A stretch of DNA of 64,000 nt, taken from NCBI GenBank assembly GCA_903832635.1, contig CAILCF010000002.1, positions 7,665-71,664 of the forward strand. The letters are read 5' to 3'. The DNA comes from an uncultured bacterium (GTDB lineage Bacteria > Patescibacteriota > Saccharimonadia > Saccharimonadales > Saccharimonadaceae). Within the stretch, counting starts at the first letter, position 1; each line of letters opens with the position of its first letter. Positions 45,342 through 45,468 of this stretch are shown here, one piece after another. Below the pieces are notes generated by a model. The model did not search any database. It was not told where the DNA came from and saw only the letters and a program-made list of their open reading frames with translations. The position numbers and the translations under genes were made by a program.

Positions 45342-45468
45342 TTCAAACCGCCGACCCGACAGCTTTGGCTGTCGATTGGTCGCGGTTCGGCATAGTGCAG
45401 TGAAATGAAAATGTGTTTACATATTTTCATGAACAAACGGAGGAGGCTTTAGCCGATATCCGTCCGGA
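45342..45468 (+). repeat. tRNA-linked T-arm-matched module, family 2 (Arg-TCG copy)
   Basis: ttcaaaccgccgaccc (antisense T-arm, 15/16), hairpin gacagc-tttg-gctgtc, ggtcgcggttcg (sense), tagtgcag, atgaaaatgtg-ttt-acatattttcat, aacaaacggaggaggctttagccga, then atccgtccgg (10/10 to the tRNA). Confidence 0.65.

Follow-up and report, generated by a model that had tools for sequence, protein, structure and literature searches.

Target-matched non-coding modules behind tRNA genes of Saccharibacteria as candidate integrative elements

Modules behind the tRNA genes of the window

Behind the gene for tRNA-Arg(TCG) in a 64-kb stretch of an uncultured Saccharimonadaceae genome (contig CAILCF010000002.1; hereafter the window) lies a non-coding module that repeats parts of this tRNA around a conserved core, and which, with its relatives in the window and in other loci (labeled L plus a number, for example L082 or L204), is the subject of this report. 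Such modules, here called family 2, form units of ~200 nucleotides (nt) with no open reading frame (ORF) inside, and their parts follow the order tRNA(a b) - H0 - b'a' - hairpin - a - core - b - H0', where a stands for tRNA nt 46-57 and b for nt 59-76 (Table 1). Every part that a sequence-only reading of the locus had listed was found where it had been placed, but the extent given there (45342-45468) was too small, since the palindrome begins at 45285 and the terminal hairpin ends at ~45498. In addition to its hairpins, the core behind tRNA-Arg(TCG) has the conserved motifs tagtgcag, caaacggaggag and gctttagccga.

The core hairpin pattern, AAAATGTGTT..ACATATTTT, has three exact matches in the 64 kb (the P4 intervals of Table 1), where the chance expectation is 0 and 100 shuffles of the window gave 0 matches. 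A covariance model of 42 homologues returned the same three copies and nothing further above noise, in agreement with the three copies claimed earlier, and these three regions fold far more stably than shuffles (z -4.7, -4.2 and -3.9). The cores always lie behind their tRNA, the hosts being tRNA-Lys(TTT), tRNA-Arg(TCT) and tRNA-Arg(TCG). The tip of the hairpin had been thought to differ in each copy; it is identical in the two Arg copies and extended only behind tRNA-Lys(TTT), and the tRNA-Arg(TCT) copy belongs to a recurrent subfamily, 2b, rather than being degraded. The stretch GGAGGAG, noted as Shine-Dalgarno-like with no ORF behind it, is indeed followed by a variable hairpin and then tRNA sequence, and a Shine-Dalgarno role is rejected for want of a consistent downstream ORF.

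A second core, family 1 (GGTGAGAACTGCC..GGCAGTTCGCAAGG ... GGGGTCGCG..CGTGACC), likewise occurs three times, behind tRNA-Pro(TGG), tRNA-His and tRNA-Lys(CTT), with arms laid out as in family 2. ARAGORN and Rfam find eight tRNA genes in the window, so that six of the eight carry a module, and the two module-free tRNAs abut convergent ORF ends across a gap of only ~5 nt. The earlier picture of two unrelated cores in one target-matched layout at six of nine tRNAs therefore stands except for the total; the supposed ninth is probably an 18-nt duplicate of the 5' end of tRNA-Lys(CTT) at ~45577. Among the Rfam 15 covariance models only tRNAs reach the gathering threshold within the window, and an Rfam search of 45150-46050 returned nothing credible up to an E-value of 10. 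A T-box or a guide of the C/D-box or H/ACA type is also rejected, as the defining boxes and pockets are absent from the sequence, and so is a T-loop intron of a pseudo-tRNA; the split T-arm copy cannot yield a tRNA because it lacks nt 1-45.

Table 1. Coordinates of the modules and their parts in the window
Feature	Position	Strand	Score
tRNA-Arg(TCG), intact	45211..45287	+	67.7 bits
H0, terminator-like palindrome (A-tract, GC stem, T-tract); stem takes in the tRNA CCA	45285..45326	+
b', putative decayed antisense copy of the T-stem 3' strand and acceptor 3' strand (sequence reading)	45327..45341	+
a', antisense ttcaaaccgccgaccc, copy of tRNA nt ~44-59 (variable loop 3' end, T-stem 5' strand, T-loop)	45342..45357	+
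hp, variable hairpin capping the a':a helix	45358..45373	+
a, sense ggtcgcggttcg = T-stem 5' strand and GGTTCG (nt 46-57)	45378..45389	+
Family 2a core: GTAG-type motif, P3, internal loop, P4, CAAACGGAGGAG, P5, CGAT end	45390..45457	+	89 bits
P4 hairpin AAAATGTGTTTACATATTTT	45408-45427	+
P5 hairpin ggctttagcc	45445-45454	+
Y/b, sense copy of tRNA nt 59-68, atccgtccgg, 10/10 to the tRNA	45458..45467	+
Decayed acceptor 3' strand remnant (acttacc), then REP-like hairpin tttagaaggacggaccttctaaa at the second-terminator position	45468..45498	+
Family 2a unit behind tRNA-Lys(TTT) (tRNA 1944-2020)	2018..2215	+	62 bits
Its H0	2018-2060	+
Its a'	2075-2088	+
Its hp	2089-2115	+
Its a	2118-2129	+
Its core, with extended P4 at 2147-2179	2130-2206	+
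Its Y	2207-2215	+
Family 2b unit behind tRNA-Arg(TCT) (tRNA 30413-30488)	30231..30415	-	63 bits
Its H0	30415-30374	-
Its a'	30360-30347	-
Its hp	30346-30329	-
Its a	30328-30317	-
Its core, with P4 at 30299-30280	30316-30239	-
Its Y	30238-30231	-
Family 1 module, tRNA-Pro(TGG)	20836-21039	-
Family 1 module, tRNA-His	31501-31680	+
Family 1 module, tRNA-Lys(CTT)	45781-45975	+

Cognate arms, sharp junctions and a covarying core

A metagenome scan with the family 2 pattern recovered at least 120 loci, with 126 pattern instances among the matches listed (~0.8 Mb). Among these instances a tRNA lies directly upstream in 80, covering at least 21 anticodons, and the distance from the tRNA end to the core hairpin is 102-192 nt (median 117); the other instances are mostly contig edges, chance matches or rearranged copies. 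The listed loci hold 155 tRNAs, of which 86 carry family 2, three carry family 2 with an inverted core and six carry family 1, while an antisense arm (at least 11/14) is present at 19 of 53 remaining tRNAs, with diverged cores in most of those listed. The core has the orientation of its tRNA in 86 of 89 cases. A loose pattern scan of genome contigs gave mostly chance matches and two true ones, L082 at the orthologous tRNA-Arg(TCG) and L090 at tRNA-Leu(TAG), both metagenome-assembled genomes (MAGs) of Candidatus Saccharibacteria; homologues of the neighboring MurB are similarly named as Saccharibacteria or Saccharimonadales. No family 2 match was found in the viral contigs, phage records and plasmid records scanned. 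An unrelated conserved repeat, GCAGCGTTAAGAAAATRTGCCRGTGGCAYATTTTTAGCGTAGGCCGCAGCGGCTATGCCGCGAGG, was frequent in the loose genome scan (L003, L016, L018, L019, L025, L035, L091, L096 and L111, from Oscillospiraceae and relatives) and seems to be a separate repeat or RNA family of Clostridia.

The arms of each module copy the tRNA beside which it sits. In most copies, 12-14 of the 14 antisense positions match the cognate tRNA, versus 8-10 for a random other tRNA, and the 3' sense segment matches at 8-10 of 10, versus 6-7. The antisense copy is sharply bounded at nt 46 (match of 0.33 at nt 45 and 0.91 at nt 46), stays at 0.8 or above up to nt 61 and fades over nt 62-70, the complementarity of b' to the tRNA being 0.5-0.65 at nt 62-68 across the family. 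Similarly, the sense copy before the core starts at nt 46 with identities of 0.87-1.0 at nt 46-53 and of 0.00 at nt 58, where it never has A, and the sense copy after the core sets in abruptly at nt 59 (rising from 0.31 at nt 58 to 0.91) and holds 0.78 or more to nt 68 before fading. These segments follow changes in the tRNA: a G52A/C62T T-stem change in the tRNA-Arg(TCG) of L082 is repeated in all three module segments, and each of the independent T-stem variants seen in tRNA-Arg(GCG) and in tRNA-Arg(TCG) is mirrored in the module of that tRNA. The proposal in the sequence-only reading that a common mechanism rather than chance underlies the shared layout is thus supported on the three points which it had singled out: no known RNA family or repeat was matched in Rfam or in viral, phage and plasmid records, the module is present in related genomes, and its flanks co-vary with the tRNA.

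H0 resembles a terminator whose stem usually reaches into the tRNA to nt 69-73, and the 3' third of the tRNA, H0 and the antisense copy consequently form one long imperfect palindrome. This continuity of the antisense copy with the terminator palindrome had escaped the first reading, as had the frequent extension of the third copy to CCA and a second terminator, the behavior of the units as insertions and the occurrence of the same cores at other tRNA positions. No promoter was found for the module, and a terminator lies upstream of it. Antisense T-arms matching at 17-20 of 21 positions are common, and behind no tRNA was an uninterrupted second sense T-arm (at least 16/21) found, this copy always being split by the core. 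We also considered the cores as later insertions into a pre-existing empty fold-back, a possibility rejected because no empty third copy was found.

The core itself varies in ways that keep its structure. The three pairs flanking P4 covary (-3/+3: AT 44, GC 19; -2/+2: TA 53, CG 11; -1/+1: AT 53, GC 8, TA 3), and so does the distal pairing of TAG[T/C]G with CAA[A/G]C (TA 31, CG 23, TG 7, CA 2); at the P3 pair, U-G intermediates exceed C-A by 7 to 2. Covariation as strong as that in the 42-sequence alignment was reached by 0 of 500 shuffles, and the signal collapses when the registers are slid. Within the core the tRNA-sense strand folds 5.6 kcal/mol better than its complement (difference in minimum free energy -5.6, p 1e-11), and the terminator palindrome has no strand bias. 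Structure-keeping variants include subfamily 2b, a 2c form with a different P4 sequence and a P4 variant, AAAAAGTG..CATTTTTT, that keeps a G-T pair, and family 1 stems likewise carry compensatory changes in other loci (L144, L176, L199, L203). Cores within one genome are 0.58-0.85 identical and differ at every unconstrained position, and cores at different loci are on average 0.81 identical when they share a tRNA type versus 0.75 when they do not; judged by these identities, core lineages follow the tRNA, not the genome.

Insertion-like arrangements and neighboring genes

The modules occur as tandem units and truncated relics, with swapped families and inverted cores, and are absent from some relatives. 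An extra downstream sense copy of nt 59-68 is present at 63 of 122 tRNAs, compared with 2 of 122 in the control, and 14 tRNAs have two or three such copies, spaced by ~50-90 nt (5'-truncated units, often starting at the 3' strand of P4), by ~200 nt (full units) or by more. At 23 of the 122 tRNAs, nt 59-76 is kept at 16/18 or better and is then followed by a second, different terminator. In L204 two complete units stand in tandem behind tRNA-Lys(CTT): the family 2 unit comes first, with a perfect copy of nt 58-76 and an old terminator after it, and the family 1 unit second, trailed by nt 58-70 in decayed form. The tRNA-Lys(CTT) of the window has family 1 only. Older, 5'-truncated units are found behind full ones, the core is inverted between normally oriented arms at three tRNA-Met loci, and three tRNAs that have family 1 in the window, tRNA-His, tRNA-Pro(TGG) and tRNA-Lys(CTT), are found with family 2 at other loci.

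The orthologous MurB-tRNA-Arg locus was also sampled without bias, by way of MurB (L243-L248). Homologous arms with a diverged 2c core are present in L243 (MurB 87% identical), and a family 2 module with a full displaced 3' end in L245 (75%). L244 (82%), with an identical tRNA, has a plain terminator only, and L246-L248 (72-75%), with a different T-arm, have no module either; the module is missing despite an identical tRNA and in sister lineages, and is therefore not essential. The tRNA-Lys(CTT) of L243 is also module-free. A contig of the same species as the window (L240) has identical spacing and gives no sign of strain-level polymorphism at tRNA-Arg(TCG). Converging on the module-free tRNA-Arg(TCG) of L244 is a gene for a large serine recombinase (625-2262; Resolvase, Recombinase and Zn_ribbon_recom domains), located after a DnaD/helix-turn-helix gene, which may belong to another mobile element at the same tRNA. 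In L139 (reverse strand, ~4347-5850), tRNA-Gln is followed by a module, a displaced 3' end with ~35 nt of flank, a ~0.85-kb gene on the reverse strand, ..GCCA with a terminator, and a second module with the same displaced end and flank, such that the gene is bounded by a ~55-nt direct repeat.

Related arrangements exist at other tRNA positions. The 5' side of the window tRNA-Lys(CTT) bears a 128-nt insertion (45574-45701), absent in L243, in which the old promoter, a copy of nt 1-18 (45577-45594), the hairpin cccagacagcttgcctgtctg and an antisense copy of nt 17-31 (D-arm) precede a new promoter and the intact tRNA. Like insertions, with a junction after G18 and an element starting with CC and a hairpin, occur at five other tRNAs (L154, L205, L211, L228, L231), and the insertion looks like a 5'-side counterpart of the 3' modules. 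Family 1 cores also lie inside dead upstream partial copies of tRNA-Gln (L227) and tRNA-Leu(GAG) (L230), after ~nt 22 and at 26|27, each followed by an intact tRNA with its own promoter, and the cores are thus not confined to the T-loop. In our reading, the junction classes 18|19, 26|27, 45|46 and 53-58|59 all fall at unpaired positions of the cloverleaf. Positions 18, 26, 46 and 58 are also the classic conserved modification sites Gm18, m2,2G26, m7G46 and m1A58, an overlap that may point to an RNA or cDNA step or else to single-strand accessibility and that we retain as a coincidence only. A retro-element origin, attractive in view of these sites, in which tRNA complementary DNA halts at modified bases and 5' truncation reflects target-primed reverse transcription, is rejected: the crude motif screen gave one unverified YADD-type match to a reverse transcriptase (a 332-aa ORF in L161) and no recurrent family, and the 5' truncations are equally explicable as deletions.

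Across the 0.8 Mb of loci, one DNA-processing family alone recurs, a ~205-aa Y1 HUH protein (PF01797, E 1.3e-9) whose best NCBIfam model, the repetitive extragenic palindromic (REP)-associated tyrosine transposase (RAYT), scores below its curated cut-off and for which no solved-structure relative was found by sequence. Its gene occurs in six related loci against ~1 expected, and in the 64-kb window there is none; these loci lie mostly near tRNA-Met, and synteny may therefore account for the enrichment. Inverted hairpins of the type TTTAGAAGGACGGACCTTCTAAA (variant TTGCAAGGTYCRWCCTYGCAA), with a T-arm-like stem and loop, flank the gene on both sides in a REPtron-like manner, and hairpins of this type (L196, L210, L213, L233, L160, L158) often have the promoter-like ttgtgtaatat after them. 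The same REP-like hairpin stands behind two window modules (45475-45498 and 20783-20799). The link between the Y1 protein and the cores is circumstantial, and a role for RAYT as the proven mobilizer is rejected given the different flanking hairpin and possible synteny. Apart from the Y1 protein, only syntenic housekeeping genes recur as ORFs beside the 126 listed instances in our crude motif screen. Next to the REP-like hairpins near tRNA-Met there is also a perfect DnaA-box, TTATCCACA (L158 ~3975-4020, and L196, downstream of tRNA-Met), which could be due to chance or to proximity of the origin.

A candidate integrative element and its alternatives

We regard the chances as about evenly balanced that family 2 represents one of the core families of an integrative element, ~200 nt long, non-coding and non-autonomous, whose targets are the cognate tRNA genes of a Saccharibacteria clade. 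As inserted, the unit would consist of tRNA nt 59-76, H0, antisense nt ~68-46, the hairpin, sense nt 46-57 and the core, and would sit between T-loop nt 58 and 59 of the cognate tRNA gene; equivalently, a unit running from H0 through the core and nt 59-76 could be seen as placed directly after CCA. The nt 59-76 of the present tRNA-Arg(TCG) would accordingly be an element-borne replacement end. Because the unit would supply both a new 3' end and a terminator, the tRNA would stay intact, with the old 3' end and terminator displaced downstream, there to decay. The antisense arm may pair either with the tRNA's own T-arm, via H0, or with the split copy, via the hairpin, and through this alternative pairing a single folded strand would present both boundaries and the target in one and the same base-paired setting. 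A trans-acting single-strand enzyme may cut and join there, recognizing the core or using it as cofactor. The Y1 HUH (IS200/RAYT-like) transposase of the related loci is a candidate for this enzyme.

Known systems offer partial parallels. Similarly to islands and phages that integrate in the T-loop class of tRNA 3' parts, the inserts are bounded by a direct repeat of a tRNA 3' segment (the 63 and 23 of 122 tRNAs above), the tRNA would be regenerated from an element-borne copy, and units build up in tandem at one tRNA; unlike them, the module is ~200 nt long without integrase or other ORF, has a core-split distal T-arm copy in place of an intact crossover site, adds an antisense target copy and its own terminator, and serves at least 21 tRNA types with one shared core. 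In the IS200/IS605 group, of which IS608 is an example, and in its ORF-less derivatives, a Y1 HUH transposase moves single strands, and a short guide beside a subterminal hairpin recognizes the sites of cleavage and insertion by base pairing (PMC3201880, PMC5934647); the left end of IS608 has the order cleavage site, linker, guide at the hairpin foot (PMC3201880), and engineered longer guides raise its specificity (PMC5934647). The modules share with this group a strand-specific structure, hairpins near the ends and a lack of terminal inverted repeats (none of useful length between the ends GCGTAG... and ...GCCGAT), a segment at a hairpin foot that is the complement of the bases immediately 5' of the insertion point, and a Y1 transposase-like gene in related genomes. 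They differ in that the putative guide has 13-16 nt rather than 4, the Y1 gene lies outside the units with a different flanking hairpin, an 18-nt target repeat flanks the unit, and mobility is here proposed from sequence arrangement; the 18-nt repeat (nt 59-76) could be either a copy brought by the element or a duplicated target.

REP, REPIN and BIME sequences with their RAYT (TnpAREP) transposases (PMC3733652, PMC3479197, PMC8266576) likewise consist of short extragenic hairpins in alternating orientation with conserved linkers, persist vertically, lie near terminators and have a G(T/A)AG motif upstream of the core hairpin, and a RAYT-like gene with inverted flanking hairpins exists in the same clade. 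The modules depart from them in being found only at tRNA genes, with arms that copy the neighboring tRNA and no genome-wide consensus, and in that the RAYT-like gene is flanked by the other, TTTAGAAGGACGGACCTTCTAAA-type hairpin. After single-strand integration of CTXphi, the target is followed by cargo, an inverted copy, a loop and half an element site joined to half a target (PMC3442271, PMC3089051). As in such folded attachment (att) sites (CTXphi and other Xer-exploiting elements, integron attC), inverted target-like copies (antisense nt 46-61(68) with sense nt 46-57 and 59-68) can fold into a duplex target mimic, in the order target, antisense copy, loop, sense copy and target remainder; unlike there, a tRNA T-arm takes the place of dif or attI as the target, the exact junction is occupied by a structured core, and no phage genome or cassette is carried. 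The topology thus resembles the CTXphi and IS608 schemes by analogy, differing in the core at the junction and the tRNA target, and we do not claim membership in either family. IS110 bridge RNAs or seekRNAs (PMC11208160) similarly combine a conserved non-coding scaffold with variable segments to both target strands around the crossover, guides and targets co-varying over many copies, but the modules have no adjacent recombinase gene and a different architecture in which the guide is sequestered in a helix, the upstream terminator casts doubt on their expression, and a donor loop was not found in them. A classical miniature inverted-repeat transposable element would have terminal inverted repeats, which are missing from core and unit ends, and a short target-site duplication of fixed length, where the flanking repeat is here 10-18 nt of tRNA sequence.

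Several observations weigh against an integrative element. Searches revealed no recombinase or transposase in or consistently beside the units in the 0.8 Mb of loci (by a crude motif screen) and none in the window, the flanks of the Y1 gene carry a different hairpin and neither family 1 nor family 2 cores, and neither an excised form of the unit nor, for family 2, a pair of strains whose sites, one filled and one empty, share both flanks was found. The cores have diverged at unconstrained positions and group slightly by tRNA type, and therefore give no sign of recent copying within a genome; vertical inheritance under purifying selection fits this divergence equally well. Moreover, integration leaves unexplained how arms for a new tRNA are acquired, and the long, highly conserved single-stranded stretches of the core are more RNA-like than transposon-end-like. 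A bolder variant, which we put forward tentatively and hold at a low probability, is that the tRNA-matched arms act as nucleic-acid guides, such that a protein-less element of ~200 nt would pick its site by pairing with the folded target strand and could be retargeted to any tRNA. Such a system would be a natural counterpart, with 13-16 nt, of the 4-nt guide of IS608, or a bridge-type RNA guide, with a replacement tRNA end and terminator (a promoter in the 5' variants) that would make insertion into an essential gene harmless.

The RNA-like features of the core raise the question of whether the module instead serves its host, as a structured 3' trailer read through from the tRNA and acting on that same tRNA, for example in the processing of its 3' end, in the control of its folding or by antisense regulation of the T-arm, with the core as a protein-binding or catalytic scaffold and the arms conferring specificity. 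Such an RNA would account for the covarying helices and their excess of U-G over C-A intermediates, for the strong tRNA-sense asymmetry and co-orientation of 86 of 89 cores, for motifs kept between deeply diverged paralogues and cores that cluster by tRNA type, and for arms that follow T-stem changes. We nevertheless consider it unlikely, as a terminator-like palindrome separates the tRNA from a module with no promoter found, unrelated cores replace each other at the same tRNA and can be inverted, tandem units and truncated relics exist, the same core also appears in D-arm positions of dead upstream tRNA copies, and absence from L244 and sister lineages speaks against an essential role. The covariation and strand bias would also suit a bridge-RNA or omega-RNA type of guide for an RNA-guided recombinase or nuclease encoded elsewhere, its antisense arm pairing with one strand left of the T-loop crossover and its 3' sense nt 59-68 with the other strand on the right, and in its favor the modules have a conserved scaffold with variable target-matched segments of both polarities meeting at nt 58/59. 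The published IS621 sequence presumably starts with AGTGCAG, like the TAGTGCAG motif of the core, which is a lead and not a test. Against it stand the lack of a recurrent IS110-, TnpB- or IscB-type ORF beside the 126 listed instances in the crude motif screen of 0.8 Mb, the upstream terminator without a promoter found, the sequestration of the antisense arm by the sense copy and the absence of an Rfam match, and we judge it quite improbable.

Explanations that deny the module a function or mobility of its own fare no better. In quasi-palindromes, template switching can turn one arm into a copy of its partner, and palindrome-driven switching at tRNA terminators could in principle generate a sense-antisense-sense triplication as a functionless by-product, its similarity kept by quasi-palindrome correction. 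The long imperfect palindrome of tRNA 3' third, H0 and antisense copy, and the triplicated layout, are in keeping with this, but it leaves unexplained the conserved, covarying cores of ~70-100 nt, the constant junctions at 46 and 59 over 21 tRNA types, the two terminators of different sequence and the stacking of different core families, and we give it little credence. An origin as decayed att scars of ordinary islands or prophages that integrated in the T-loop by their own integrases finds support in the direct repeats of the tRNA 3' end, the large serine recombinase gene beside tRNA-Arg in L244 and the gene between two modules in L139. This origin is nonetheless very unlikely, considering that the same ORF-less unit of ~200 nt recurs at more than 100 loci, that no integrase recurs in the loci screened, that its distal T-arm copy is always core-split and never intact, and that the antisense arm and hairpin are foreign to the att sites of islands.

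Full-text literature searches yielded no description of such modules, and the targeting principle stands a genuine chance of being new. The annotation of tRNA genes and the assembly of MAGs in Saccharibacteria are affected by the partial tRNA copies and long palindromes, and members of this group are now culturable and genetically manipulable. If the modules are instead trailer RNAs matched to their own tRNA, they would represent a new layer of bacterial tRNA biology. If they are integrative elements, much of the intergenic DNA around the tRNAs of this Saccharibacteria clade would be explained, and a new design would join the nucleic-acid-guided insertion systems, such as the IS200/IS605 guides and the IS110 bridge RNAs, pointing to an enzyme worth finding. 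Taken together, the integrative-element interpretation, if true, would mean that the genomes of these reduced, episymbiotic bacteria conceal a population of tiny non-coding elements, which appear to read their target by base pairing and solve the problem of insertion into essential single-copy tRNA genes by bringing the missing gene end with them.

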